A stretch of DNA of 64,000 nt, from positions 9,903 to 73,902 of the forward strand of contig MEZX01000003.1 in NCBI GenBank assembly GCA_001774395.1. Reading direction: 5' to 3'. The stretch comes from Candidatus Berkelbacteria bacterium RIFCSPLOWO2_01_FULL_50_28. Its GTDB lineage: Bacteria; Patescibacteriota; UBA1384; 2-12-FULL-50-11. Made by a program: the position numbers and the translations under genes. Positions 5,153 to 48,157 of the stretch are shown piece by piece. A model generated the notes under the pieces. The model worked only from the letters and a program-made list of their open reading frames with translations, was not told the DNA's origin and did not search any database. Each line of letters opens with the position of its first letter. The first letter of the stretch is position 1.

Positions 5153-5440
5153 TTGGCCTGTCGCGGAGGTTTAAAACCAGTGAGCAACCACGAACTTTGG
5201 ATGTGGATTTCCGGAGTGATCGGATTCAGTTGCTTCGTGGTTATTCACTTCACGAAGCTCTTAAAGAATCCTCTGTATGCAGGACTTGTACAGCTAGCGT
5301 CCAACGTTTTCGTTTTCGTCAGCTGGGGCTCGGCTTACATTAGCACTCGGGGATCATTCGCCCTTTTTGGAGTCATATTCCCGATTGTGACGGGGACCAT
5401 TACCATTCGCACGTTACTGCGAGCACGACGTCAATCATAG
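5153..5440 (+). CDS. small membrane protein (2-3 TM)
   Basis: AGGAGG sits 6 nt upstream of the TTG start. Hydrophobic segments are present, and a terminator follows. Confidence 0.4.
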   Translation: MACRGGLKPVSNHELWMWISGVIGFSCFVVIHFTKLLKNPLYAGLVQLASNVFVFVSWGSAYISTRGSFALFGVIFPIVTGTITIRTLLRARRQS

Positions 5441-8043: not shown

Positions 8044-9237
8044 TTAGGCGCCAATCCCCACGAATGTTAGAGCCTTGCCGGCTTTATTGATGCGGCCAGT
8101 GCGGCCAATGCGGTGAATATAGTCGGCGTAGTTTTCCGGCGTGTCGAAGTTAATAACGTGCGAAACGTCGGGGATGTCCAGGCCGCGGGCGGCCACGTCC
8201 GTGGCAACTAATATTTCTACACGGTCTTCTTTAAAATCTTTCAGAGCGCGCTGGCGCTGGGACTGACTTTTGTTGCCGTGAATTGAAGCCGTGCCAAATC
8301 CTCGCTCCATCAGAGCGTCATTTAACTTTTGAACGCCGTGTTTTGTGCGGCCAAAAATGAGCACTTTCTTCGCGTCTTCTTGAAGCAAGATATTGTGTAG
8401 CAGGGTCATTTTGTGGAAAGTGTCGGTAAATCGAACGATGTCCTGGTCAACGTTTTGCGAAGTTTCACGTTTTTTGACCGAGATAGTTTCGGGGTTTGTG
8501 GTGAAGCTTTGAATCAGAGCCCGGACCTCGGGTGAAATGGTGGCGGAAAAAAACAGTGACTGGCGCACTTGCGGCAGTTTGGAGATGAGCTCCCGCACAT
8601 CATTAATAAAGCCCATGTCTACCATTCGATCGGCTTCGTCTAGGACGAGATTATTGAAATCGTGCAAGCGCAACGACCGTTGCCCAACGTGATCTTTCAG
8701 TCTTCCCGGCGTGCCGATAACAAACTGGGGGTTACGCCGCAGGGCGTTCAACTGAGTGCCGTAGCCGCTACCGCCCAAGCAAAGGGCCGAGTGGATATTC
8801 ATCCCGCGCGAAAAAGCTTTCAGTTCGTCGTCAATCTGAACGGCTAGCTCTCGGGTGGGAACAACTATTAAGGCTTTTTGTAGGCGATCTTTTAGCATCT
8901 TGTCGAGCAACGGCAGTAGAAACGCCGCTGTCTTACCGGTGCCGGTATCGGCAATGCCGATAACGTCTCGTCCGGTCATAACGATCGGGATAGCCTTATC
9001 TTGAATAGGGGTTGGGGTGACGTAGCCTCGAGCGACTACGCGTTCCAAGACAATTGGGGAAAGCACAAAATCCTCAAACCTGTGAGTTATCGGTTCTTGA
9101 GCTTGATCGGGCACGTCAACCGATTTGTTGACGTACATTGAGGAGTGGACACTCGAAAAGCGCGGTTGTCGCGAGCGACTTCCGAAACCTCTAGAGTTGC
9201 CAAAGCCGCGACTGCGACTTCGCATAGTATTATTCAT
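8044..9237 (-). CDS. DEAD-box ATP-dependent RNA helicase with an RGG/RS-rich N-terminus
   Basis: Q-motif, TGTGKTAAF (motif I), DEAD, SAT and HRIGRTGR motifs. Confidence 0.85.
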   Translation of the reverse strand: MNNTMRSRSRGFGNSRGFGSRSRQPRFSSVHSSMYVNKSVDVPDQAQEPITHRFEDFVLSPIVLERVVARGYVTPTPIQDKAIPIVMTGRDVIGIADTGTGKTAAFLLPLLDKMLKDRLQKALIVVPTRELAVQIDDELKAFSRGMNIHSALCLGGSGYGTQLNALRRNPQFVIGTPGRLKDHVGQRSLRLHDFNNLVLDEADRMVDMGFINDVRELISKLPQVRQSLFFSATISPEVRALIQSFTTNPETISVKKRETSQNVDQDIVRFTDTFHKMTLLHNILLQEDAKKVLIFGRTKHGVQKLNDALMERGFGTASIHGNKSQSQRQRALKDFKEDRVEILVATDVAARGLDIPDVSHVINFDTPENYADYIHRIGRTGRINKAGKALTFVGIGA

Positions 9238-9522
9238 TCTTATTACAGCCTTTCTACTGTTGGTTGGTTTTCCAACCGAGCTCCCGAACAGTAGTGCCGC
9301 CTATCTAACGAGTGGGGCAACAATCCGAAAGCAATTTAGCTTTACTTAGTCCTGGATTGAACCCGAGGAGTCACATAAAGTTCTGCAAGCATAACAGTAA
9401 TATCGGCGAATGTCCAGCTTAAAGGGGTTGGGTTGTGATCTTGTGGTCTATTGTAAAGCAAACTTTACCCCCACACCGAAATGAACTTCGGTGCGGGGCA
9501 GGCATTTTTTATCCCGCCTGCT

Positions 9523-9538
9523 AGGAGGCTTTATGTAA
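9523..9538 (+). promoter_or_regulatory. start-stop mini-ORF (AGGAGG-cttt-ATG-TAA) in the leader of the downstream operon
   Basis: A perfect SD is followed by ATG TAA. It is preceded by a hairpin plus T-run at 9474-9512. Confidence 0.3.
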
Positions 9539-9566
9539 AGGACGCTTTACAGTATACTTTTAGGTA

Positions 9567-10220
9567 ATGGACGGCAAAGTGTTGGTGATTTCCGATACCC
9601 ATTTGACTACAAAATTTAACCCGAAGAAATTCGAGTTGCTACGTGGGCTCATAAATTCGTGCGATCAAGTTGTTATTAACGGCGATTTTTACGAAGGGTT
9701 CGTCATTAATTTTTCCCAGTTCGTGACTTCGCCGTGGCAACAATTATTCCCCATACTGAAACAGAAAAAAGCAATCTATCTGCCCGGAAACCATGAGAAG
9801 AACCTTCCGGATCACGGCTACGAGCAGTTTTGCGACCAAGTTATGGAGAAGTATGAATTCGAGCAAAACGGGGTGACATTCCATGTTTTTCACGGGCACG
9901 GTGTGGACCGAACTTTCGACGTCCGGAATCCAAATTTTCCGAGATTCATCTCTGGGGTTGTCTCTCGGTCGGAAAAAATAGTTTGCGCAGTTTTTGGGCG
10001 TCGCTACACTAAAATCTACAAGTATGAAAACCAAATTCTGAAGAGATGGAAACTCAAAAACCTACCTTTGAATGACTGGCTGATCTGCGGTCACACCCAT
10101 TTAGCCGAACTTGACGAAACGGCAAGATTTGCCAATTCAGGCTTGTTTTTGTCAGAGAAGTTGGCGAGTTACTTAACAATTGAAAACGGTAAAATAGACC
10201 TTCACTACATCGATGGCTAG
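9567..10220 (+). CDS. metallophosphoesterase (calcineurin-like)
   Basis: Motifs ISDTHL, NGDF, GNHE and GHTH. Confidence 0.7.
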
Positions 10221-10821
10221 AGATTATTACGAAGTTTTAGGGGTTTCGCGTTCTGCCAGCGAGCAAGAGATAAAAAAGGCTTATCGAAGTAAGGCCCATA
10301 GACTGCATCCCGATAAAGGTGGGGATAAAGCGGCGTTTCAAGAAATAAACGAGGCCTACCAAGTTTTGAGTGATAAAAATAAAAAAGCCCAGTACGACCA
10401 GTTTGGCTCGGTCGGTCGAGGAGCCGGTGGATTTGGCGGCGCTTCACAACAGGGTGGAGGATTCGGTGGTTTTGACGGCTTTAATGTAAATTTTGGCGGC
10501 GGCCAGAGCCAGGGCGGTTTTGGCTCAATTTTTGAAGATTTATTTGAATCGGCTTTTTCGCAGGTTCAAGTCCAGCTCCAAATTTCGATCCCGCAAGCGG
10601 TTCTCGGCGATACTGTCCGTTTTAAAACTAATTTTGGCGACGAGGTCGAGTTAAGAATCCCGCCAGCTACCCAAGAAGGACAGTCCTACAGGTTCAGAGG
10701 TAAAGGTCAACAAACCCGTCGCGGCCGTGGCGATCTGACGGTAGTCATCCACATAGACATCCCCCGCCGCCTATCTCGCGAACAAAAAGAGCTTTACGAG
10801 CAACTGAAAAGAGCCTCCTAA
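10213..10821 (+). CDS. DnaJ-like J-domain protein lacking the zinc-finger domain (CbpA/DnaJ-like)
   Basis: J-domain with HPDK, a G/F-rich linker, and a C-terminal [27 protein letters not shown] that is DnaJ-CTD-like. Confidence 0.75.
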
Positions 10822-11172
10822 GTCAGCGGCCTGGGAGACCGCATCACCAACAGCTTTACGTTCATCGCTGAGATCGAAGGTCGCTTCAACCGCAACCAAC
10901 GGACGAATCGAAAGGATCGAAACGTTCAGAGCCATCCCCCGAAGGCGATAGCAAGACAAGCACTTGAGCGCTTGCCACCGAGTTTACTCGGCGTCGAGAG
11001 CCAGAGCTCTCACTCGGACGAGTTACAGATCGCTGTTTGGCTTAAACGATCCCCAGGCCTTTTGAGCGCGCTCTAGACTTTCCCAGAGGGGCTAGAGCAT
11101 TGTCAGGTACGCTTAAACCAACCGTATCAACGGTGAAATGGAAATCAAGTCTAAAAAGATTGACCACCCCGT

Positions 11173-12144
11173 TCAGGAAGTGGCCAATTTTGGCGAGATG
11201 GTTTGAGCGCAGAGCTGGCGGTACGCGCAGTATCGATCCATTACTCGCTTCTCAGTGGAGTTGGGTCTTCGACGGTAACGCCGACCACCTTTCCGACGAA
11301 CTGAGGGGTCTTGCAGTGAGGCGAGTAGCTGGCTCATCATCCCGCTGATCTGCACCTGAGTCGCCTTGTCACACAGACCTTTTTCGATCGCGTTGTGAAT
11401 AGCACCGCGAATCTTGCCGAGGTAGCTGCGTGGCAGGATGATGCTCCGATTCTGATTGAGTGTGAATCCAGCGATCTTGACTGGCCCGCGGTTCAGGTCA
11501 AGGATTTGGGTCTTACTTTCATGGATCACCAAACCAGCTTCGCGCATCAGGCCGTAGATGGCCTGGCGTTTCTTCTTGCCGATTCTCGTCATTGACGACA
11601 AGGTGATGTCGTCGAGATAACGGGTGTACGTCAGACCGTACTGCTTGCAGAGCTCTATGAGTTTGCTGTCGAGCAGGACTGCCACGTAGAGATTGTAGAG
11701 ATCGGGCGAGGCTGGTGCTCCAGTGAGCAGGCCGCCTTTGTTGTTAAGACAGTAGCGCTGGAGGAACTGTGTGACTACTTCAGATCCAAATAGATCGCGC
11801 GGCAGAGTTGGATCAAGCTCCAACAAGACCTGGACCAACTTCTCTTCGTCAACTGTTCCGTAAGCATCCTTGATGTCTAACAGCAAAAAGTACCTATTGT
11901 TTCGGTGCGGAAAGATGTTGGTGATTGACGAATGGCCTTTCCTGGCGCCGGTGGCCGCGGAAAGATCGGCTGGTAGCGAACGAAGGTAGCTAATCAGTGC
12001 GCTATGAACCTCTCGCATTTGAGCGTTAGGTGCGGAAATGTGACGACGTTTGGTTCTGCCGCCGAGAGGGTTCACATCCTTCAGAAAGAAGTGACGAAAA
12101 GCTGCTCCCTCGACAGGAGCGGCCAATATTGGTTTGTTTGACAT
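11173..12144 (-). CDS. reverse transcriptase, retron-type (putative)
   Basis: 323 aa. RT motifs: NRYFLLLDIKDAYGTV (motif 2), GLLTGAPASPDLYNLYV (motif 4), TYTRYLDDITLSS (YxDD), VIHESKTQIL (motif 6) and KIAGFTL (VTG-like). SITNIFPH is NAxxH-like. No maturase or endonuclease domain. AGGAG is 6 nt upstream of the ATG. Confidence 0.7.
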   Translation of the reverse strand: MSNKPILAAPVEGAAFRHFFLKDVNPLGGRTKRRHISAPNAQMREVHSALISYLRSLPADLSAATGARKGHSSITNIFPHRNNRYFLLLDIKDAYGTVDEEKLVQVLLELDPTLPRDLFGSEVVTQFLQRYCLNNKGGLLTGAPASPDLYNLYVAVLLDSKLIELCKQYGLTYTRYLDDITLSSMTRIGKKKRQAIYGLMREAGLVIHESKTQILDLNRGPVKIAGFTLNQNRSIILPRSYLGKIRGAIHNAIEKGLCDKATQVQISGMMSQLLASLQDPSVRRKGGRRYRRRPNSTEKRVMDRYCAYRQLCAQTISPKLATS

Positions 12145-12239
12145 CTGTTACTCCTGTTGTGGTTGATGTGAAAGGGCGAAGAATTCCAGCGAAGATGGGG
12201 CAGGGAAAGATTACGACTTACTCTTGGTTGAGTCAAGCA

Positions 12240-12326
12240 AAACTTTTTCAAGATGATATTCCCGGCCGGGTTCGTCTCTCTCGTGAACAAAGAGAGCTGT
12301 ACGAACAGCTAAAAAACTTAAGTTAA
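12240..12326 (+). pseudogene. displaced fragment encoding a DnaJ C-terminal tail (KLFQDDIPGRVRLSREQRELYEQLKNLS*)
   Basis: 16/21 residues are identical to the tail of the intact DnaJ-like gene, in frame to a stop. There is no convincing RBS. Confidence 0.4.
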
Positions 12327-13378
12327 CCGGCGTTGGCTTCGAGAAATTCCAGCACCACTTCTTCTTCGGGCAGCAAACCAACGGTATCTACTTCAAGAGT
12401 GCTGATAGTATCGACTTTGGGGCCATTTCCGCTCAAGAAGCTTTCCAAAACAAACGGGTGGACGTAACATTTACGACAAACGGTGGGCGTATTACCAAGC
12501 TCGGCGGCGACGGTTTTAATCGTGGCAGTGATCAACTTTTTGTTCTCGCGTTCGGTTTTGGCGCGCTGACACTCAGAGAGCAGAATCGCCGCCAAAATCG
12601 TCCCTCGCCAGGTACGAAAATCTTTGGCGGTGAACTCTTCGCCAGATGCATCTTGGATATACTCGTTGACATCTGCCGAATCGATACCGTGCAGGTTGTC
12701 ATCCTCGTCAATAAATTGAAATAGCTCTTGCCCGGGCAAGTCTTGGAGCCTGCCGATCAGGCGAGCCAGGCGGCGATCTTCGAACTCGACGGTGTGAAAC
12801 TGGCCGCTTTTACCCTTGAAGTTGATAGTGACTTTAATCGAGCCAACCTCGACGTGACGGTTACGCAAAGTGGTTAGGCCGTACGATTGGTTTTCTTTGG
12901 CGTACTGCTCGTTGCCGACGCGAATCATTGTTTTCTCGAGTAATTTAACGATTGTCGCTAAGACCTTTTCCCGTGGCAGGCCCTGCTTGTTCATGTCTTC
13001 GGACATTTGGGAGCGGATTTTTGGCAGAGCCTTGCCAAATTCGATTGTTTTTTCAAATTTGGACTGATCGCGAAATTTTAACCAGTCGGGATGGTAGCGG
13101 TACTGTTTGCGGCCTTTCTCGTCGGTGCCGATTGCTTGCAGATGGCTGTTAGCAACGGGCGAGATGACGACATTCTCCCAGCCCGGCGGCAGGACGAGCG
13201 AACGAATTCTCTCAAGCGTTTCTGGTTCGGTGATGTTTTCGTCTTCTTTTTTGTAATAGTAAAACTTGTCGCCGCGTTTAGCGCGTTTGATTGTTAGTTG
13301 GTCTTCGCGAAAGTAACGCAACCCGGCCTCTTTGGCCGAAGCGACCGGGTCGCCGGTAAGCTCAATGACGTTTTCCAT
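12323..13378 (-). CDS. DNA topoisomerase IB (poxvirus/eukaryotic-type)
   Basis: 351 aa. GKSGQFH, the catalytic region AELGNTPTVCRKCYVHP (active-site Tyr), and an N-terminal DNA-binding region. Confidence 0.7.
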   Translation of the reverse strand: MENVIELTGDPVASAKEAGLRYFREDQLTIKRAKRGDKFYYYKKEDENITEPETLERIRSLVLPPGWENVVISPVANSHLQAIGTDEKGRKQYRYHPDWLKFRDQSKFEKTIEFGKALPKIRSQMSEDMNKQGLPREKVLATIVKLLEKTMIRVGNEQYAKENQSYGLTTLRNRHVEVGSIKVTINFKGKSGQFHTVEFEDRRLARLIGRLQDLPGQELFQFIDEDDNLHGIDSADVNEYIQDASGEEFTAKDFRTWRGTILAAILLSECQRAKTERENKKLITATIKTVAAELGNTPTVCRKCYVHPFVLESFLSGNGPKVDTISTLEVDTVGLLPEEEVVLEFLEANAG

Positions 13379-13479
13379 TGCGGTTAGTGTAGCACATCAG
13401 ATTCGAGACTCGACTTGGCTGATTGGGGCGGCAGTTCGTTGGACAAACGGTTGCCCGAGCTTGGGGCCCGGGCAATTGG

Positions 13480-14010
13480 TCATTCATCGATGATCTGGCC
13501 GATTACGATCTTTTTTTCGAGGCACTCGTCTTTAGAGGTGAAAAGGAAATAACCGGTCAGGATTTTCCCATCAAGAACTGGTTCAATCCAGCTCTCATCC
13601 TCTTGCCACATCTCGTGGTAGGGGATGTTGTGACGCTTCCACCACTTTGGTGCCATCTCTTCGCTTTCAGCTGGATCGCCCTCCCACTTTTCAGCCTCGT
13701 AGACGTAGCATTTCTGATTCCATCTCTTCTCCGGTGCCACGTCTGAGAAGTAGAAATACAGAATTGCCACCAGCCGAACCTTGATGAGGTCAGTGCCAAG
13801 TTCGTCTCTAGTTTCACGAACAACGCAATCTTCCGGCGATTCGTTCAGCTCTTCCTCGGTTTTTCCACCAGAGAAGTTCCACTTGCCTTCCCCAAAACCT
13901 CGTTTCTTCATTGCCAAGTTCACCAGATCGCCCTTGCGAATGATGCCCAGAGTGGTTTTGCGCAAACTACCAACATGAGCCCTGCGATGCTCTGTAAGGT
14001 TCATAGTCAA
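13480..14010 (-). CDS. NUDIX hydrolase
   Basis: Nudix box GGKTEEELNESPEDCVVRETRDELG. Confidence 0.7.
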   Translation of the reverse strand: MTMNLTEHRRAHVGSLRKTTLGIIRKGDLVNLAMKKRGFGEGKWNFSGGKTEEELNESPEDCVVRETRDELGTDLIKVRLVAILYFYFSDVAPEKRWNQKCYVYEAEKWEGDPAESEEMAPKWWKRHNIPYHEMWQEDESWIEPVLDGKILTGYFLFTSKDECLEKKIVIGQIIDE

Positions 14011-14046
14011 GTTGTAACCAAAAAAACTAAGAGAAACAATATCGGT

Positions 14047-14082
14047 TTATAAAAAATAATGCGCGGCCACCGGGGGCCGCGC
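14047..14082 (-). terminator. rho-independent terminator for the minus-strand gene ending at 14096
   Basis: 8-bp GC stem gcgcggcc/ggccgcgc. On the minus strand it is followed by a U-run (plus strand ataaaaaataat). Confidence 0.65.
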
Positions 14083-14095
14083 AAAGGAGTCGGGC

Positions 14096-15538
14096 TCAGA
14101 CAGTATTGCCAAGCAGGTATTCGATTGCCTGCTTAGCACCGTATGAGTCGTTCGGACCATCCATCAGGAACGGGAGAAAATCCAGATTTCCCGCAGTTAC
14201 GACCGCGGGCTCTCCCTTGTTGCCTAATCTGGCCGTGACCATCAGACCATTACAGAGACATCCCCTGCCGACGGTATCTTCGAGTTTCCCGCCCTTAGCG
14301 GTATACTTCTTCTCCGGTTCGGCGGCGCATCTGTAGCCGATGGAACCGTCTGGCTTCTCGTACAGAGAGACCAGAGCGCACTGATTACAGACGCGATCTC
14401 TCTTCCTGAAGACCTCTGGGTCAGCGATCGTCCCTTCCAGCTCTACAACTTGAAAAGGATATCCTGTTGGAGAGATGTCCATATCAGTACGAACTTTCAA
14501 TGTGCCATTGTACCCCTGCCTCCGAACTTCGCGGCGAATTTCAGGATCCATTCCGGAATCGTCACTGAAAGCAAACATAGAGCCGACTTGGATGCCCATT
14601 GCGCCGACCGACAGTGCCCAGCGGAGTCTTTCCGGTGAGGCGCAAGAACCACCGATATAGAACCGCACACCGAGTGCGACGAGCTTGGCATAGTCGACAA
14701 CATCCTTTTCGCCGTAGACAAGAATTTGTTCGCCGTCAGCGTTTATCGCGGGGGTTCTCGGCGGAGCGTTATGCCCGCCAGCCGTTGGCCCTTCAACGAC
14801 AAGAGCGGCGATATCTCCTTCGATCTTCGTCGCAAAGAGAATGGCAAGGGCGGTCGAGGCAACGATGGGAATGAATCCCGGCTTCTTCATCGGCGGCAAT
14901 TCGCTTCCGAAGAACTTTTTGGGATCAAAACTCATCGCATACTTCTTGGTCTTTCCGTCGATACCGGCGTAATCTACGTCGTAGTGGACTACTCTTCCTT
15001 CGGCGATCGCGTCGATCACGTCAGGGATTTGTCGCGGTATGCCAGCACCCACGGTTACGAAGTCCACACCAGCCATCATCGCACCAAGGATACCGCACAT
15101 CAGTGACATGGAAATTTTCGCCATGTAGTTGATGCTGACCGGATTACTGTGTCCCTCTTTCGCTAAGTAGACAAAGGCGTAGTTAGCGCAAATTGTCAGA
15201 GCGATCAAGCGAGCCGGGGGTTTGACAGTAAAAACTGGTTTACCCTTGTACTTTGCTCCAGCCGGAATCCCGCCTTCGACGAAATACTCGTCAAGCACCC
15301 CTTTGGCCATATTCTGGAACGGAAAAGTTGCCAAAGCGCGTCGAAGGTGTCCACCTAGATCGCCTTCTTGCAAAAGCCGCGCTAGCAGAATATCTGCACC
15401 GACACCCGACACGGTACCAAGTTGGCCAAGCATCGAGACGATTCGTGCTAGCGGCCAGATCGAGATATTGAATCCCATCCCTCCCTGGATAACCCGCGGG
15501 AGGCAGTGGACTTCTGTCGAACTGTTAAGTTTCTTCAA
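14096..15538 (-). CDS. nitronate monooxygenase / FabK-like enoyl-ACP reductase II family (NMO, 2-nitropropane dioxygenase-like)
   Basis: IQGGMG and VVEGPTAGGH motifs. 480 aa. Visibly GC-rich. Confidence 0.65.
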   Translation of the reverse strand: MKKLNSSTEVHCLPRVIQGGMGFNISIWPLARIVSMLGQLGTVSGVGADILLARLLQEGDLGGHLRRALATFPFQNMAKGVLDEYFVEGGIPAGAKYKGKPVFTVKPPARLIALTICANYAFVYLAKEGHSNPVSINYMAKISMSLMCGILGAMMAGVDFVTVGAGIPRQIPDVIDAIAEGRVVHYDVDYAGIDGKTKKYAMSFDPKKFFGSELPPMKKPGFIPIVASTALAILFATKIEGDIAALVVEGPTAGGHNAPPRTPAINADGEQILVYGEKDVVDYAKLVALGVRFYIGGSCASPERLRWALSVGAMGIQVGSMFAFSDDSGMDPEIRREVRRQGYNGTLKVRTDMDISPTGYPFQVVELEGTIADPEVFRKRDRVCNQCALVSLYEKPDGSIGYRCAAEPEKKYTAKGGKLEDTVGRGCLCNGLMVTARLGNKGEPAVVTAGNLDFLPFLMDGPNDSYGAKQAIEYLLGNTV

Positions 15539-15637
15539 CGCATCACCTCCTTTAGGGTATGCGGGATTATTTTAACTGCTGAGGCTGGCAAAAGATATGG
15601 ATTAGAGATTATGCTCTTGCGCTCGCCAATCATCAAT

Positions 15638-15815
15638 AACCGAAAACTGGCGACTGCCACAGCGATTTCAAAGCTTGGCGAGAAATCGGAGCGTAGCGAG
15701 ATCCTTCCGGTGGCGAGGAGCCGGTTTTCACCTCTCCCCGAAGGGAAGCGTGGCCAGGTATGGGGTGTGGGGAGGTAGGGGCGGCCTTCGCAACTACGAG
15801 CCCCTCCTCCCCACA
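15638..15815 (+). ncRNA. structured RNA element, copy A (candidate cis-regulatory leader or ncRNA)
   Basis: Homologous to the minus strand of 26851-27090, with compensatory changes in stems (cgatttc/gaaatcg vs cggctttcg/cgaaagccg; tgtggggagg/cctccccaca vs tgtgggggcc/ggcccccaca). Confidence 0.45.
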
Positions 15816-15919
15816 AAAAAGCTGCGGTGCAGTTGCAAACTCACACCGCTGAAAGCGATAGGAACCATTTGACACTCAACCCAGTTGCTTGGATACTAAT
15901 TTGTAGGAGGAACAAGAGA

Positions 15920-16450
15920 GTGCAAGCTGTACCAAGTTGGGACCTATTCTTAACCATCTTTTTCATTGTTAGCATCGGCTACTCCTTTGTGTTGCAACGC
16001 GACAAGGTGGTGGTGACGTTGTTGGCGATTTATGCTGGAATTGTTGTCGCTACGGTGATTGGGCCGTCGGCTCAGGATTTTTTCCAAGGCAACAAGACTG
16101 TTGGTGACCAGCTATTTGTGAAGGCGAACGCCAGCCCGTTCTCAGTTTCGGCAGGACTGTTTATTCTGACGACAATCGTTGTCTCGGTTCGCTCGGGATT
16201 GGGCCGCGGTGGCTCAAGTTCTAGTTCGAAACTTTCAGCCTTTGAGTTGGCGCTGTTTAGCTTTTTGAATTCGGCTTTAATTCTGACGGCGATCTTCTCG
16301 TTTATGGATAAAGAGGCGGCGACCCAGTTTGCCGCTCACTCACGAATTGCCCGAATTTTCATCGACCGTGAGCTTTGGTGGACAATCGCACCGATTATTG
16401 CTCTGGTGGCCACCGGGGGCTTGGGCAAGAGCCGAAGCTCGGATTACTAA
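15920..16450 (+). CDS. multi-pass membrane protein (hypothetical)
   Basis: AGGAGG sits 9 nt upstream of the GTG. Several hydrophobic helices. The ORF track starts further upstream at 15827. Confidence 0.5.
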   Translation: MQAVPSWDLFLTIFFIVSIGYSFVLQRDKVVVTLLAIYAGIVVATVIGPSAQDFFQGNKTVGDQLFVKANASPFSVSAGLFILTTIVVSVRSGLGRGGSSSSSKLSAFELALFSFLNSALILTAIFSFMDKEAATQFAAHSRIARIFIDRELWWTIAPIIALVATGGLGKSRSSDY

Positions 16451-16501
16451 AATATCGCGCAAAAAACTGCCGGCACTGAGGCCGGCTTTGGATGTGCTTA
16501 A

Positions 16502-40739: not shown

Positions 40740-41096
40740 TCAGCTGTCGGCTCTCAGCTTTTTTGAGAAAGATCCAAGCTGCTTTCTTAAGGCGTAGTGC
40801 CTGACCATCAGTGACTCATAATTGAGTCGGGTGAGATCTTTAGCTACATCTAAGCACGCCGTAACCTCGTAAACTGACCCAAGGGCGTTGTGAATATATC
40901 GATTAAAATCCTTGTCAGAATTTTTACCAGAACCCTCGGCAATATTCAGGACGACCGATAGTGACGCCCGTCTAATTTGATTAACTAAGTATTCAAGTTC
41001 ACGAGGAAATTTCTTAGTGAACTCGAATATCTCTTTATGAAGCTCTTTGGCTAGCTGGTAGACACGGAACTCATTAAATCGAAAATCTTCGGTCAT
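40740..41096 (-). CDS. four-helix-bundle protein (23S rRNA IVS-associated family)
   Basis: 118 aa with VYQLAKEL...LNIAEGSG motifs. Confidence 0.55.
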   Translation of the reverse strand: MTEDFRFNEFRVYQLAKELHKEIFEFTKKFPRELEYLVNQIRRASLSVVLNIAEGSGKNSDKDFNRYIHNALGSVYEVTACLDVAKDLTRLNYESLMVRHYALRKQLGSFSKKLRADS

Positions 41097-41379: not shown

Positions 41380-41470
41380 TCGCCTCTCGACTCACTTTGT
41401 TCGCTCGAGGTTTTTCGGCAGTCTCTCGTAAGATACGAGCTTACTTCGAGCCTGTCGAGAAGTGCCCCCC

Positions 41471-41513
41471 GCAGGAGTTGCACCTGCGACCATTTCAAGC
41501 TTTTCTTTGGCGG
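41471..41513 (+). repeat. 43-bp direct repeat R1 (gcaggagttgcacctgcgaccatttcaagcttttctttggcgg)
   Basis: Identical 43-mer to 42632-42674. Both resemble the complement of the tRNA-Arg 3' end (ggcgccccc/tggcaggaNNNNgacctgc). Confidence 0.8.
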
Positions 41514-41647
41514 AGTTCGGATGTACTGAAATTTTAGCGAATTTCGGTCTTGTAGGTAGAGCCTTTGTTCTTTGAATTATCAAATAGAAAAACGCGCCAA
41601 AGGTCTAAAGACATGGCGCGTTTGGCTGGCGGGAGATGCGAGGTGGA

Positions 41648-42316
41648 TCAGCCGGTGAGGTACGCGAGAAGCGCAGCCCAGTTCTTGGCGCGGACCGTGT
41701 CGGACCGCTTGCTGTACTCCTCGTACTCCAACGCCTTCGAGAGATCCTGCGGGTCGAATCGATCGACCCAGTTCCTCGTGTTGGAGAGGAGTACCTTGCT
41801 ACCCTCGACCGTGAAGGCCGTGGGGGCACTCTCGCCACCGTCGTAGTTGAAGGCATCGAAGCAGGCAGAGGCGGGATGCGAGTGGTGGCTGCAGTCGGTG
41901 AAGACGGCGACATACTTCGCACCGGCTCTGACCGCGGCCAGCAACCCGATGAAGATGCCGACGGACATCTCCTGTCCCATGAACTGCGCCCCATCCGGAC
42001 CTTGCGCCTGCTGTGAAGCGGGCACGAGGAGATCTGTCAGAACGACATCGAAGTTCGGGTAGGTGGTCGCCTGCTCGTTCGCCGCTTCCACGGAGGTAAA
42101 GTATTCGGCCTTCTTTGCCTCATCGTCGGATCGATAGGGGTCGAAGTCGCCGAACTGCAGTTTGAGAGCAACCGAGGCCTTCTGGTAGTCGCACTGTGGT
42201 GTGAGCAGCCTTTGCGCCTCGTCGTAGGTGTCGACGACCGTGAGGTCGTGGTTCTTGAGTTGGGCTTGGGCGGCTGCGAGATGGATCCTGTTGTCATCGA
42301 ACAATAGAATACGCAT
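41648..42316 (-). CDS. response-regulator receiver (REC)-like protein, GC-rich cassette
   Basis: N-terminal MRILLFDDN...VLTDLLVP is REC-like. It is markedly GC-richer than its surroundings. Confidence 0.45.
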   Translation of the reverse strand: MRILLFDDNRIHLAAAQAQLKNHDLTVVDTYDEAQRLLTPQCDYQKASVALKLQFGDFDPYRSDDEAKKAEYFTSVEAANEQATTYPNFDVVLTDLLVPASQQAQGPDGAQFMGQEMSVGIFIGLLAAVRAGAKYVAVFTDCSHHSHPASACFDAFNYDGGESAPTAFTVEGSKVLLSNTRNWVDRFDPQDLSKALEYEEYSKRSDTVRAKNWAALLAYLTG

Positions 42317-42631
42317 GGCTTAATCCTCCATTCGGTTGGATTTGTGATCCCGTCCACTCGACATGAGTAGCGCGTCAGATACCTGAATCAGATGTCCAAT
42401 GTGCTACTCACAGAGTAAACTAAAAAGGATTTCCCACTTTTTCTCCCGCTTTATCAAAGAGCTATCTGTAATTTAAGGGGAAATTCATCGCCTCAAATTA
42501 TGTGTGAGTATAGCGTATGGTGTCTATCCTGTAAAGCCCGACTGACTACGATTTGATCTCTGCTAATAACCAACTAAAAAGCCCTATTTCAGGAAATCCT
42601 TCACTATTAACTCCTTTAACGTGGCGCCCTC

Positions 42632-42674
42632 GGCAGGAGTTGCACCTGCGACCATTTCAAGCTTTTCTTTGGCG
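42632..42674 (+). repeat. 43-bp direct repeat R2
   Basis: Exact copy of R1, preceded by ggcgccctcg, which matches the complement of the tRNA-Arg 3' end. Confidence 0.8.
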
Positions 42675-42677
42675 GCG

Positions 42678-43580
42678 CTAAAATCGTGATTTACTCAATT
42701 TCCTATCCAAATCTTCTAAATAATAATATGGCGCCGATTGTAATTCAATCGCTCGTTTTACCTCTTCCAAGGTTTGCTTTTTGTTCCTCTTCGCGATTTT
42801 CAACAAGAGTGCAAAGAAAGTGCAGTTTTCATGTTTTCCAGTTTCTTGCACATTCAACATTTGAATCAAAATCGGCACTAAAGTTCTTGATGGAATTTTT
42901 AAAACTCTTGCAACAAATACTTTATCGTCAAAGATTTTATCTCCAACCTGTTCGATTTTTTGTAACACGATTTGCAGTTTCTTTGCTTCCAGTTGGGGTA
43001 ATTTTTCAAGATAAGGTTTTATGTTTATCTTCTTTTGATCAATCAGCTCTTTTTCCAAAAGTGCCACCACCCACTCATTAGAAACATTTATCAAACTATG
43101 AAAATTACCCAAACCATTTTCTTTAACGACATAAAACCAGTTTTTCCAAGATTTAAGCTGGCTTTTACAATATTTTTCAGAAAACTTGGCATAAGCCGAT
43201 GTCTTCTCCGTTGGTACATTTCGAGTAAGAGAAAAATCAAATTTCATTTCTCCTACAAGCGGCTTAAATCCTTTCTTCGTGGGGTTGATTTTGCCAAGAA
43301 TCTTTACCCTCGCTCTTCTAACTTCGGGGTGTGGATTCAGCAAACTGACCTCGTCGCCAGTAAAGCCGTGCGGAGGAAATACGATAATTCTCTTTACAAA
43401 TCTCGCATCCTCGCTTTTCAAACGAACAAAAAAGCAAGCTGGTCTTGTAATTACTTCTGCTTCTCTGTTGCCAAGAACTTTCTTGAAAGTTTTTTGGAAA
43501 AGCGAAGATGTATAAATTTCATAGAAATTGGATTGCATAGCATGATTAAAGAGTTTTCTTCCCCCAAAATTGAATACCAA
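42678..43580 (-). CDS. hypothetical basic protein (AT-rich, tRNA-Arg-adjacent island cargo)
   Basis: 300 aa with no recognised domain. Its 3' end overlaps R2. Confidence 0.4.
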   Translation of the reverse strand: MVFNFGGRKLFNHAMQSNFYEIYTSSLFQKTFKKVLGNREAEVITRPACFFVRLKSEDARFVKRIIVFPPHGFTGDEVSLLNPHPEVRRARVKILGKINPTKKGFKPLVGEMKFDFSLTRNVPTEKTSAYAKFSEKYCKSQLKSWKNWFYVVKENGLGNFHSLINVSNEWVVALLEKELIDQKKINIKPYLEKLPQLEAKKLQIVLQKIEQVGDKIFDDKVFVARVLKIPSRTLVPILIQMLNVQETGKHENCTFFALLLKIAKRNKKQTLEEVKRAIELQSAPYYYLEDLDRKLSKSRF

Positions 43581-43631
43581 TTAGTTGTCGAGCGAAGCGA
43601 GGCGAACCAAAACTCTTTGACTTTTCCTTTC

Positions 43632-43706
43632 TGGCGCCCCCGGCAGGAATCGGACCTGCATCTACAGCTTAGGAGTCTGTAGCTCTGTCCATTGAGCTAC
43701 GGGGGC
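43632..43706 (-). tRNA. tRNA-Arg (CCT), CCA encoded
   Basis: Reverse complement: acceptor gcccccg/cgggggc, anticodon loop ctcctaa, T-arm gcaggtccgattcctgc, 3' CCA. Confidence 0.75.
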
Positions 43707-46159: not shown

Positions 46160-48157
46160 TTATTTTTTTAAAATCCTCACGATACCATTATCAGCATCTA
46201 CCTCAATCTCGTTCCCATCTCTGAGTAATTTTGTGGCGACTTTGGTACCGACGATACAAGGCTTGTTCATTTCTCTTGAAACAATCGCAGCATGAGAAGT
46301 TAAGCCGCCTTCGTCTGTAATAAATGCCGCTGCTTTTTTCATCGCCGGCAAATACTTAGGCATAGTCATCGCTGCGACCAAAATATCTCCCTCCTTAACT
46401 TTCGGAAGGTCTCGTGTGCTTGAAACGATTCTTACGATACCCTTGGCTTGGCCTTTGTTTGCTACCTGTCCTTTTATTTCATTCTCTGTTACTTCTGCTT
46501 TTCCAGATATCACAGATTCTTCTTCCTCTAGAATTATTCCTAATTTTTCAAGATTATCGTCTAAATTGCCAGTAAAGATTTCGTTTTTGTAAAATATGAA
46601 TCCTCGTTTCCTCTCTTCTATTTTGGAGATGATATCTTCACTCTCTATCTCACCGCTCCATATTTCTTCTGGTAAAACGAAACGTGCACTATCTTTGATT
46701 TGGGGGAAGCTTGCTTCCATAAATTCTTTGAAAACCGCTTCTGGCGTTTCGTTATATTCTTGAGTTTGGCTTCTTGCTGCATAGGCCAGATGCTTTAACT
46801 CCTCATCTACCGGCAAAGCCGGAATCATAAAAACTACTCCGATATAAGCCCAAATTGAAGCATATCTTTCTTGAAATTGTCTTAGTTCCTCAACATTTTC
46901 TAGGAGTTTTTCTCCAGTGAAATATTTTTTTAACTCTTTGAAGCTAGAAATAAAACTTTCAATTTTTTCTGACATCCTGTTCTTATCACTACTGTTTTGT
47001 ATCACTGCGCCAAAAAGCCTTTTTAGCTCTATTGGCTCATAGTAAATCTCCACCAGATCCTCACCGCGATACACTGCACACGCTTCCTCCACTGACTCCC
47101 CTATGATTTTAGGAAGCTCTTGATTCATCGCCCGATACCACGTCGCCACACGGAACAGGGAGTACTCCCTTGCATGTTCTTTGGTAAATTTTCTTTTCAA
47201 GCGGGGCTCGGTTTTCCTGAGAGTGGTTATGGGTCTACTTTGGACAATATAGAATTTGCCTTGCTCAAATGCCCATTCAACGTCAACGGGAAAGCCGTAG
47301 TGCTTTTCAATGCTAATTACTTTTTCCGAAAGCTCTAGGATTTCCTTATCGGACAAAGCTTGTTTTTTTCCTTTTTCTTTTGGAATATCGTGCCATTCAT
47401 TGCCTCCGCTTTTGGCGCGATAAAATCCTCGTGATTGTGTTTGAATATTTTTGTCTATAATCCGTAGAGGTTGTTTTTCTACAACATAACTATCGGGCGT
47501 AATTTGTCCTGAAACGATTGCTTCGCCAAGCCCGAACCCTGCTTCAATAATGAGCTGGTTTCTGTCCTGTGTTACTGGATGAACGGAAAAAGCGATGCCC
47601 GATTTTTCGCTCTCAACCATTTTTTGTACAACAACGGCGACGGATATTTTTTGCTTGTGTAATTTTTTTTCAAAGCGGTAGAAAATGGCACGTGACGTGA
47701 ATAATGAAGCCCAACAGCTTTTCACATTATCAAGTAAATTTTCTTCCGTAGTATTGAGGTAACTCTCCAGCTGTCCCGCCCACGCCGCATTGGCAGAATC
47801 TTCTGCAGTAGCCGAAGACCTAACCGCCACATATTTTGCACCGAGGTTATCGAAGAATTTTTGGATTTCGCTTGTTAAATCCTCTGATATCTTTGCCCCG
47901 AGAATAAGCGCTTCGATTTTTTCCGAAGCGTTTTCAACACTATGAAGTTCTTTGTGATTGACCGAATCTAGAATTGACTCAATTTCAATATCTAGATTTG
48001 ATTCTTCTAAGAATTTTTCAAATGCGTTAGCAAGGATTACAAAACCCGGCGGCACAAGGATGCCCGACTGTGTCATTTCGCCAAGCGAAGCTCCTTTCCC
48101 TCCAGCTAGAGAAACATCATTCTTGTTGATCTTATTGAAATTACGTAGGAATCCCAT
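46160..48157 (-). CDS. PEP-utilizing enzyme family (pyruvate, water dikinase-like)
   Basis: N-terminal PPDK-N-like ATP-grasp region and C-terminal mobile-domain motif GGLTSHAAIVSREMNKPCIVG. Confidence 0.7.
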   Translation of the reverse strand: MGFLRNFNKINKNDVSLAGGKGASLGEMTQSGILVPPGFVILANAFEKFLEESNLDIEIESILDSVNHKELHSVENASEKIEALILGAKISEDLTSEIQKFFDNLGAKYVAVRSSATAEDSANAAWAGQLESYLNTTEENLLDNVKSCWASLFTSRAIFYRFEKKLHKQKISVAVVVQKMVESEKSGIAFSVHPVTQDRNQLIIEAGFGLGEAIVSGQITPDSYVVEKQPLRIIDKNIQTQSRGFYRAKSGGNEWHDIPKEKGKKQALSDKEILELSEKVISIEKHYGFPVDVEWAFEQGKFYIVQSRPITTLRKTEPRLKRKFTKEHAREYSLFRVATWYRAMNQELPKIIGESVEEACAVYRGEDLVEIYYEPIELKRLFGAVIQNSSDKNRMSEKIESFISSFKELKKYFTGEKLLENVEELRQFQERYASIWAYIGVVFMIPALPVDEELKHLAYAARSQTQEYNETPEAVFKEFMEASFPQIKDSARFVLPEEIWSGEIESEDIISKIEERKRGFIFYKNEIFTGNLDDNLEKLGIILEEEESVISGKAEVTENEIKGQVANKGQAKGIVRIVSSTRDLPKVKEGDILVAAMTMPKYLPAMKKAAAFITDEGGLTSHAAIVSREMNKPCIVGTKVATKLLRDGNEIEVDADNGIVRILKK

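Follow-up and report, generated by a model that had tools for sequence, protein, structure and literature searches.

Single-gene cassettes stacked behind a tRNA-Arg gene of a Candidatus Berkelbacteria genome, and related cassettes behind other tRNA genes of the candidate phyla radiation

In a 64,000-nt stretch of DNA from Candidatus Berkelbacteria bacterium RIFCSPLOWO2_01_FULL_50_28 (contig MEZX01000003.1 of assembly GCA_001774395.1; the whole stretch is called the window here), two cassettes with one gene each stand in tandem behind an intact tRNA-Arg(CCT) gene. Insertion occurred at the 3′ end of this tRNA gene, the inserts begin right after its encoded CCA, and the tRNA itself was kept intact. 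In the orientation of the tRNA, the order of the array is tRNA-Arg-GCCA / leader, cupin gene and trailer / R2 / promoter, CheY-like gene and terminator / R1 / host flank, where R1 and R2 are copies of a partly tRNA-derived repeat, and the three junctions have the att-like forms B-O-P′, P-O-P′ and P-O-B′ of a tandem array. The cassettes probably move as circles by way of a tRNA-like site, with a recombinase supplied in trans. The parts of the array are as follows, in window coordinates:

41380..41461: native host flank (B′), separating HU from the end of the original tRNA
41462..41513, minus strand: R1, distal junction (P-O-B′, attR), made up of the 43-mer, GGGGGGC-AC and host flank
41514..42675, minus strand: 1162-bp unit, made up of the receiver-like (REC-like) cassette and one repeat copy
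41585..41623, minus strand: terminator-like hairpin read from the sequence, AAACGCGCCA, 14 nt and TGGCGCGTTT, then TTTTTCTATTT
41648..42316, minus strand: cargo gene 1 (CheY-like, 222 aa)
42317..42621, minus strand: upstream region of cassette 1, with a promoter-like site and a 5′ untranslated region (5′UTR) containing a long imperfect hairpin
42622..42675, minus strand: R2, internal junction (P-O-P′, attP-like), made up of trailer CCGCCAAAGAAAAGCTT (42659-42675), a tRNA-Arg 3′ half starting GAAATGGTC (42626-42658) and G plus CCA (42622-42625)
42678..43538, minus strand: cargo gene 2 (ORF300, cupin-domain protein, 286 aa)
43539..43631, minus strand: leader of cassette 2 (P′ arm), CCA-GAA-AGGAAAAGTCAAAGAGTTTTGGTTCGCCTCGCTTCGCTCGACAAC...TTTAATCATG
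43632..43706, minus strand: intact tRNA-Arg(CCT) with encoded CCA at 43632-43634, on the attL side of the array (ARAGORN; Rfam tRNA, 63 bits)

The terminator-like hairpin was left unlisted by the automated scan because its loop is longer than 8 nt. A repeat search of the window aligned 41464-41513 with 42626-42675 as a 50-nt direct repeat of 96% identity, within which the exact core is 43 nt (41471-41513 = 42633-42675) at a spacing of 1162 bp. An earlier note on this DNA had called the two 43-mers identical, as they are, with R2 placed one base off at 42632-42674. Neither of the two outcomes that the earlier note had named as refuting its reading was observed: the 43-mer is not a dispersed repeat (its 40-nt core occurs only twice in the window with up to 3 mismatches allowed, where shuffled sequences give an expectation of 0), and the content is not shared by relatives. 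In the orientation of the tRNA, the live gene ends in ..GCAGG TCCGATT CCTGC CGGGGGC G CCA, followed by GAAAGGAAAAGTC; R2 reads CCGCCAAAGAAAAGCTT GAAATGGTC GCAGG TGCAACT CCTGC CGAGGGC G CCA, followed by CGTTAAAGGAG; and R1 reads CCGCCAAAGAAAAGCTT GAAATGGTC GCAGG TGCAACT CCTGC GGGGGGC A C, followed by host flank TTCTCGACAGG. A T arm and an acceptor 3′ strand thus extend both repeats, and to that extent the earlier description of the repeats as mimics of the tRNA-Arg 3′ end was justified; what they resemble, however, is the allele of a sister lineage and not the resident tRNA, and they carry in addition a 17-nt trailer.

This origin was read from tRNA-Arg(CCT) alleles in related genomes (loci compared with the window are given L numbers). 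The 43-mer consists of 17 nt of non-tRNA trailer and 26 nt of the 3′ half of a “type A” tRNA-Arg(CCT). Type A genes in L069, L070 and L071 end in ..CCTAAGGAAATGGTCGCAGGTGCAACTCCTGCCGAGGGCAC; positions 42626-42658 of R2 are 100% identical to the last 33 nt before AC in these three, and positions 41462-41496 of R1 are 94-97% identical to type A 3′ ends. The resident tRNA-Arg(CCT) is a “type B” allele, 96-98% identical to the tRNAs of L063 and L064, where the site is empty or cut. Alignment therefore points to a sister-lineage allele as the source of the tRNA part of the repeat. The 17-nt trailer is also found behind ORF300 in L001, L125 and L130, and behind another cargo gene in L057. Type A and type B 3′ ends have an identical 15-nt stretch, TCCTGCCGAGGGCAC, in common, so a crossover in the T-stem/acceptor strand would explain why attL has the host T-loop and R1 and R2 the cassette T-loop. 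G-CCA ends attL and R2, and A-C ends R1, as it does the five empty and three short-gap sites of relatives (GG[CT]AC). GCCA or ACCA is encoded in the window, L068 and L074, and no CCA is encoded at the five empty sites, at three of the four short-gap sites (41-82 nt) or in the occupied L061, L062, L069 and L072. At position 68, R2 has the cassette-type A, and both R1 and the live tRNA have G, which in the latter pairs with C5. The discriminator/CCA and position 68 partition as the tandem-integration model predicts. The 5′ half of a type A tRNA was not found elsewhere in the window, and an Rfam search (E ≤ 10) in and around the repeats returned tRNAs and antisense-tRNA noise only, with no known RNA. 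As a separate observation on the alleles, relatives whose RNase Y is ∼75-84% identical (L060-L074) carry clearly different tRNA-Arg(CCT) alleles at the one locus, and both main alleles are without the near-universal U55 in the T-loop (type B, GGTCCGATTCC; type A, GGTGCAACTCC).

To place the array in a wider context, 65 loci encoding relatives of the neighbouring RNase Y were retrieved and their genes mapped. The order RNase Y-(IVP)-HU-tRNA-Arg(CCT)-tRNA-Pro(CGG) is conserved among relatives, and the gap was measured from the HU stop codon to the tRNA 3′ end. Empty sites, which the earlier note had suggested looking for in related genomes, were found in five of them (L113, 5 nt; L122, 11 nt; L063, 12 nt; L060 and L070, 14 nt each). 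Short gaps were seen in L071 (41 nt), L066 (48 nt), L065 (82 nt) and L074 (124 nt, holding only an inverted trailer fragment), and larger inserts in L061 (317 nt), L072 (519 nt), L062 (552 nt), L069 (793 nt) and L068 (1250 nt); the gap in the window is 2252 nt. The genes of these larger inserts are unrelated; L068 encodes a nucleoside 2-deoxyribosyltransferase there, and L069 a guanylate-kinase-like protein. R1 is followed by CAC-TTCTCGACAGGCTCGAAGTAAGC, which equals the native sequence directly downstream of tRNA-Arg in L065 (TTCTCGACAAGCTCGAAGTAAGC), so R1 is the distal junction with host DNA; a tRNA end joined directly to host flank TTCTCGAC would be the form of a fully empty joint. On these sequence comparisons, the HU-tRNA-Arg(CCT) interval is an insertion hot spot at the tRNA 3′ end. 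Two further observations concern this neighbourhood. A 23S_rRNA_IVP (four-helix-bundle) gene lies between RNase Y and HU (40740-41096, minus strand); it is present in the window, L065, L072 and L062 (in opposite orientation), is absent from L060, L061, L063, L070 and L071, and resembles a further single-gene insert of the presence/absence kind next to the hot spot. Many CPR (candidate phyla radiation) tRNA genes in the fetched loci are followed, 27-280 nt downstream, by a 15-35-nt copy of their own 3′ end (L007, L020, L048, L049, L052, L054, L055 and L061; for example, a 17-nt copy after 26 nt in L061 and a 35-nt copy after 27 nt in L055), and these copies have the appearance of footprints, or of tiny inserts, at the ends of tRNA genes.

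At strain level, a lookup of the exact 286-aa ORF300 protein returned 21 contigs. One of these, L138 (ERZ27254842), represents the same genome (99.94-100% identity) and is without exactly the 1162-bp unit of the REC-like cassette: window 45794-42626 (99.94%) is joined in it to 41513-39269 (100%), with a 50-nt overlap between the alignments that corresponds to the repeat. The single hybrid repeat of L138 consists of the ORF300 trailer, the 43-mer, and then GGGGGGCAC and host flank. L138 may represent the state before insertion or the outcome of a precise deletion, and either way the boundaries of the unit lie inside the repeat. Both cassettes are present on the remaining contigs of sufficient length, so this is the majority form in the population, and the two-cassette arrangement is also found in GCA_001776175.1. 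The more distant L130 (GCA_964356235.1) has the ORF300 cassette alone beside HU and RNase Y. Candidate circular forms were rejected, since the 1.17-kb Logan contigs merely end at the repeat, where assembly breaks. The empty sites, the host flank after R1 and L138 together bear out the earlier proposal that the three-site arrangement of tRNA 3′ end, R2 and R1 arose from insertions; the two cassettes may have arrived serially or jointly as a pre-formed tandem. The opposite view, that nothing here is mobile and that R1 and R2 are decayed tandem duplicates of tRNA-Arg with old resident genes between them, could draw on the tRNA origin of the repeats and on the majority status of the arrangement. 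We consider it highly improbable, given that the two fragments share one cut position and have the same 17 non-tRNA nt in front of them, that relatives have empty sites and a 99.9%-identical strain is without one unit precisely, that the GC contents of the cargo genes are 60% and 36% against 50% in the window, and that the same cargo stands at other tRNAs in metagenome-assembled genomes (MAGs) labelled as other CPR phyla.

The inserts contain only two genes, one CheY-like and one cupin, both taken as accessory genes and neither a recombinase, as the earlier note had observed in finding no integrase there. Their GC contents deviate from that of the window (49.6%) in opposite directions (REC-like coding sequence [CDS], 60.2%; ORF300 CDS, 35.9%), and both cassettes are foreign by base composition. 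The GC richness reported earlier for the first gene is thus real, whereas its product is at most a distant receiver-fold relative. This acidic 222-aa protein has no Pfam or NCBIfam match; PF00072 is carried by two distant members of its family. An AlphaFold2 model (predicted local distance difference test [pLDDT] of 93) placed receiver domains at the top of a Foldseek search against the PDB at weak E values (0.02-0.3), and a profile search against PDB sequences also gave receiver domains at a weak E of 0.2. Conserved in the family are D7/D8 (DD), D95 and an invariant motif, TDSDHHSHPASACFD. From model and profile, the protein is probably a divergent, distant CheY/receiver-fold relative, for which “REC-like” is acceptable only at the level of the fold. 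The database entry of Candidatus Berkelbacteria RIFCSPLOWO2_01_FULL_50_28 is 100% identical to it, and its 194 homologs (≤84% identity) occur in MAGs labelled with several CPR phyla, including Nomurabacteria, Taylorbacteria, Moraniibacteria and Saccharibacteria.

Upstream of the CheY-like gene, a promoter scan identified TTTACA-17-TATACT at 42535-42507, and 42317-42465 is 83% conserved in L007, with part also in L021. The 5′UTR of the gene contains a hairpin that is long and imperfect (GAGTAGCACATTGGACATCTGATTCAGGTATCTGACGCGCTACTC; in the window at 42340-42420, minus strand; L007 3895-3960; L021 4955-5010), which is kept at 83-86% across genomes from different hosts and has no Rfam match. In L007 the gene lies 3′ of tRNA-Pro(GGG), where it is preceded by an exact 17-nt copy of the tRNA end and followed by a degenerate one, and in L004-6 and L019 it lies 3′ of tRNA-Glu(TTC). 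A 5.1-kb island in L021, which runs from tRNA-Arg(TCT) to a 14-nt repeat of the end of this tRNA, has the CheY-like gene as its final gene and also encodes a large serine recombinase, homologs of which were found ≤5 kb from the CheY-like gene in L048, L058, L031 and L024.

For the second gene, the earlier note had described an AT-rich, basic, 300-aa protein of unknown function. The composition and charge hold (35.9% GC; calculated isoelectric point of 9.8), while the open reading frame (ORF) most likely starts at Met15, which gives a protein of 286 aa (43538..42678) and agrees with the length annotated on every public contig, and the protein has a cupin domain. ORF300 has no Pfam or NCBIfam match, and its AlphaFold2 model (pLDDT of 94) shows an N-terminal cupin domain and a C-terminal helical domain. 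Foldseek against the PDB retrieved cupins (TM1459, cysteine dioxygenase) at E ∼1e-5, with 145 matches at E ≤ 0.001, the best 50 of which are all cupin-fold. The invariant motifs NPHPE..R, GxGNFHxxxN and ETGKHExC include invariant H70, E72, H147 and N151, and nearly all of the 61 homologs are from CPR bacteria. The predicted structure places ORF300 in the cupin superfamily, which makes it accessory cargo and not a mobility enzyme.

Cupin cassettes with the same ends recur elsewhere. The leader of cassette 2 is 97% identical over 68 nt to L001 5-72, where the adjoining CDS is only 84% identical; leader motifs also follow the tRNA end in L057 and L068 and a CCA-ended trailer in L001, and part of the leader is retained at the cut 5′ end of L130. 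A cupin cassette with the same leader and trailer stands directly after tRNA-Arg(TCT) in L125, and another of this kind stands directly after tRNA-Arg(TCG) in L127 with a 22-nt flanking repeat (the last 4 nt of the tRNA plus 18 nt of flank). Another occupies the HU hot spot in L130, and L001 has two copies. The same leader and trailer enclose other cargo in L057, after tRNA-Leu(CAA) with CCAGCGGCACCA/GGCACCA repeats, and also in L068. The trailer usually ends in a ∼105-nt GC-rich element (..GGTGCGGCTCCGCCGCCTTTCCGAATTTTCGCGGGGGGACTTCCTCGCCGCCGCAGGCGGCGAAATGCGTTCGGACTAATTCAAGAATACTGCAC(CA); L001 76-170 and 1151-1247, L057 10040-10137, L068 ∼8765-8870, L074 2082-2116, L125 ∼5300-5395 and L130 ∼1010-1100), the last bases of which (GCAC, GTAC or GGCACCA) are the same as those that end the target tRNA. 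The window has the type A tRNA half in place of this element, with the junction in GAAAT(G/T)GTC. The cupin cassette belongs to a recurring family with conserved ends behind several CPR tRNA genes. With regard to the GC-rich element itself, its copies in L001 are inverted around the gene and its folding signal is modest (z of -1.6 to -2.3). Its reverse complement was considered as P3-P4 of RNase P RNA; this is a resemblance only, with no Rfam support, and was left unexplained. Among IMG/VR viral contigs there was no exact match to the 43-mer, the tRNA half, the trailer, the leader or the GC-rich trailer element, and on this result a phage or plasmid origin was set aside.

Two alternatives would locate mobility in the cassette family itself. 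In the first, ORF300 is the mobility enzyme of a one-gene element homing to tRNA-Arg 3′ ends, a view suited to finding the ORF with the same ends behind tRNA-Arg(CCT), (TCT) and (TCG), no other candidate gene nearby and two copies in L001. The chance of this being correct seems very small: the cupin fold has classic metal-binding motifs, unrelated cargo sits within the same leader and trailer in L057 and L068, and homologs of 54-67% identity occur in ordinary contexts, namely within a copper-resistance operon 3.9 kb from tRNA-Asn (L002) and, at 54-56% identity, in operon-like surroundings with no tRNA within 4 kb (L131-L133). An integrase hidden in ORF300 was rejected on the same grounds. In the second, the cassettes are a non-autonomous transposon-like family, for example IS200/IS605-type palindrome-associated transposable elements (PATE) with a transposase encoded elsewhere, inserting 3′ of a short target (GCAC, GTAC or CACCA at tRNA ends) and bearing subterminal hairpins. 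Single-gene size, the two L001 copies, a right end that is always the target-like (G/A)(C/T)AC, and end hairpins (for the leader, TCGCC..GGCGA; at ∼9 nt from the right end, GCCGCC-loop-GGCGGC or that of the T arm) are all in keeping with this. We nevertheless judge it improbable, as neither a Y1 transposase nor TnpB was seen, the ends give a weak folding signal (z of -0.6 to -2.3), the tRNA-derived 14-43-nt direct repeats and the 22-nt flank duplication of L127 are unexpected, and the window attL has GCCA and not the host CAC.

Each cassette is closed by the same arm, a 17-nt trailer plus the tRNA-Arg 3′ half of the sister-lineage allele. In the reading that we prefer, circular cassettes exchanged through a tRNA-like site by an enzyme acting in trans, the exchange point would fall in or near the acceptor 3′ strand. 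The tRNA-like site of a circle would recombine with the chromosomal tRNA end or with the site of an earlier cassette, and exit would proceed likewise. Candidate trans-acting enzymes are the large serine recombinases that accompany this cargo in other CPR islands, a circumstantial link (L021, L048, L058).

Several observations weigh against this reading. A Pfam summary of 52 ORFs in the window, in which 25 of 60 families are shown, was insufficient alone to exclude an integrase, so two direct probes were added: the serine recombinase of L021 (tblastn) had no match in the window, and neither did a XerD probe (phmmer; an approximate sequence) that found recombinases in control loci at E values of 1e-37 to 1e-45. 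Very divergent enzymes would escape both probes. Gene tables show no recombinase ≤5 kb from the cupin cassettes in L125 and L127, or within ∼5 kb on one side in L130, and in L057 and L068 a tblastn search with the L021 recombinase, the sole recombinase search there, gave no match. Large serine recombinases normally leave only ∼2 bp of identity, so tRNA-derived repeats of 14-43 nt fit them poorly. A live tRNA of type B beside repeats with a type A T-loop requires a donor from another lineage or a later allele replacement; in view of L063, L064 and L065, it is simpler to suppose that the host tRNA was always of type B. Outside the 43-50 nt of the repeat, cassettes 1 and 2 have no similarity above shuffled controls. 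Linkage of the whole CheY-like family to tRNA genes was tried and rejected, ∼5 of 42 loci lying within ∼1.5 kb of a tRNA, which is the chance level; such linkage holds only for the close, GC-rich clade. Finally, a perfect repeat of 43 bp is long enough for RecA, so L138 is no proof of site-specific recombination.

This last point leads to the main alternative, which we rate as rather unlikely: there is no dedicated recombinase, and homologous recombination by the host, acting on DNA that was taken up, accounts for the gain and loss of cassettes. It could take the form of Campbell-type insertion and deletion through the 33-50 nt of tRNA-like homology, or of homology-facilitated illegitimate recombination, with the conserved tRNA as anchor and microhomology such as GAAAT(G/T)GTC or GCAC at the joint; the tRNA-half repeats would then be by-products of earlier joints. 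The perfect repeat, anywhere inside which the L138 break could lie, agrees with this, as do the absence of a visible integrase near the cupin cassettes (L125, L127, one side of L130) or in the window, the position of the trailer/tRNA-half junction in the 9-nt GAAATGGTC, similar to the trailer's own GAAATTGTC in L001, L068 and L125, and the mixture of tRNA-Arg alleles A and B among close relatives, as allele replacement would give. However, the same ends are found at three tRNA-Arg isoacceptors and at tRNA-Leu, joined exactly at the tRNA 3′ terminus with only 4-8 nt of identity; RecA would need a longer stretch, and illegitimate joining would not be so regular. Encoded CCA at the leader-bearing cassette-side joints (window attL, R2, L001, L057 and L068) and in L125, though not L127, is a further difficulty for host recombination.

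By analogy, the structure would work like known integrase-less, att-flanked elements stacked at a tRNA gene, such as cis-mobilizable elements (CIMEs), tycheposon remnants and pseudo-SCC units. CIMEs are known from tandem accretion at tRNA 3′ ends, as in Streptococcus ICESt1/ICESt3 and the tRNA-Lys elements. The present array resembles them in its att-type repeats from the 3′ end of the target gene, the lack of an integrase of its own, tandem stacking and an internal attP-like junction, and excision by the enzyme of a related element may be possible, as for CIMEs. In contrast to CIMEs, its units are ∼1 kb with one gene, no integrative and conjugative or integrative and mobilizable partner element is in view, and the shared arm is the tRNA half of another lineage. 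The staphylococcal cassette chromosome mec (SCCmec) and pseudo-SCC elements at rlmH (orfX) combine a large serine recombinase, the 3′ end of a conserved gene, short direct repeats and recombinase-less tandem units; their target is protein-coding and their units are tens of kb, whereas the link to serine recombinases here is circumstantial (L021, L048, L058). Like integron cassettes, the units are recombinase-free, single-gene and ∼1 kb, with a 3′ recombination site, exchangeable cargo and a tandem arrangement at one entry. Unlike integrons, there is no intI, attI or Pc, a tRNA half replaces the attC palindrome with its RYYYAAC/GTTRRRY cores, the array begins at a tRNA, and cassette 1 has its own promoter-like site and terminator. 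With no intI and no attC, the array is not an integron; an attC reading of the repeat was likewise rejected, as it is a tRNA half without core sites whose sole GTT heptamer, GTTGCAC, does not fit GTTRRRY. Single-strand folding of the repeat is weak (z of -0.6 to -0.9).

Compared with an autonomous tRNA-targeting element, the locus has the intact tRNA, the tRNA-end repeats at the far boundary and the empty site in relatives, but no integrase of its own in the inserts, so it is not an autonomous integrative element. Tycheposons of Prochlorococcus are defined by their own tyrosine or large serine recombinase together with a replication module, and in their islands newer arrivals push older ones outward, leaving degenerate remnants and extra partial tRNAs, and subpopulations differ by excision (bioRxiv 10.1101/2020.12.28.424599). 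Similarities to those islands are the streamlined genome, the position next to a tRNA and neighbours parted only by a partial tRNA copy (bioRxiv 10.1101/2020.12.28.424599); unlike tycheposons, the inserts in the window are without a recombinase or replication module, and none was seen beside the related cassettes. What differs here from known att-flanked, integrase-less stacks is the ∼1-kb one-gene unit, a conserved-end family with exchangeable cargo and no linked recombinase seen, and an arm copied from the tRNA allele of another lineage. A literature search gave no relevant report of such elements in Patescibacteria.

Other features of the window lie apart from the array. A 323-aa retron-type reverse transcriptase (Pfam RVT_1, 8e-18; PADLOC RT_II-A, 2.5e-33; within 11176-13378, minus strand) adjoins a bacterial type IB topoisomerase (12326-13378; Topoisom_I, 3e-41, plus Top1B_N_bact), and the next ORF (13483-14010) matches the PADLOC candidate family PDC-S07. 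There is no template/variable-like repeat of ≥40 nt in 8500-16500, so this is not an obvious diversity-generating retroelement, and the reverse transcriptase-topoisomerase pair at 11176-13378 may represent a defence locus of retron-like type whose partner gene is unusual. The leftmost ORF, at 38-889 on the edge of the window, has a BRO-N domain (Pfam, 5e-12), which is common in phage and mobile-element proteins. A phosphoenolpyruvate-utilising (PPDK_N) gene at 46160-48157 lies in the lowest-GC stretch of the window (39-43% versus ∼50%), two genes beyond tRNA-Gly(TCC), and may be another acquired gene.

How the ∼1-Mb genomes of CPR bacteria (Patescibacteria) gain accessory genes is poorly understood. 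The locus described here shows empty, one-cassette and two-cassette states at species and strain level, with joints that can be read to the base, and the absence of the unit from L138 directly documents that a gene was gained or lost at a tRNA hot spot of such tiny genomes. The cargo circulates among MAGs labelled as different CPR phyla, with ≤84% protein and 77-84% DNA identity for the closest copies. We tentatively suggest that CPR bacteria may carry a new family of ∼1-kb “tRNA-tail cassettes”, which would have conserved ends and one exchangeable gene without a recombinase, insert exactly at the tRNA 3′ terminus (Arg-CCT, Arg-TCT, Arg-TCG and Leu-CAA), form arrays by stacking and owe at least part of their expression to read-through from the tRNA promoter, amounting to integron-like gene capture with a tRNA end as entry site and an enzyme acting in trans. 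As a part of this suggestion, the family would be marked by a leader of the form CCA-nnn-AGGAAAAGTCAA..GGTTCGCCTCGCTTCGCTCGGCGA..TTTAATCATG and a trailer of the form CCGCCAAAGAAAARCTTGAAAT, followed by the ∼105-nt GC-rich element ending GCAC(CA) or by a tRNA 3′ half. Should such a conserved-end family exist, it would be a compact, integrase-less gene-capture system tied to tRNA ends, and its ends would provide a defined DNA substrate with which to find the recombinase.

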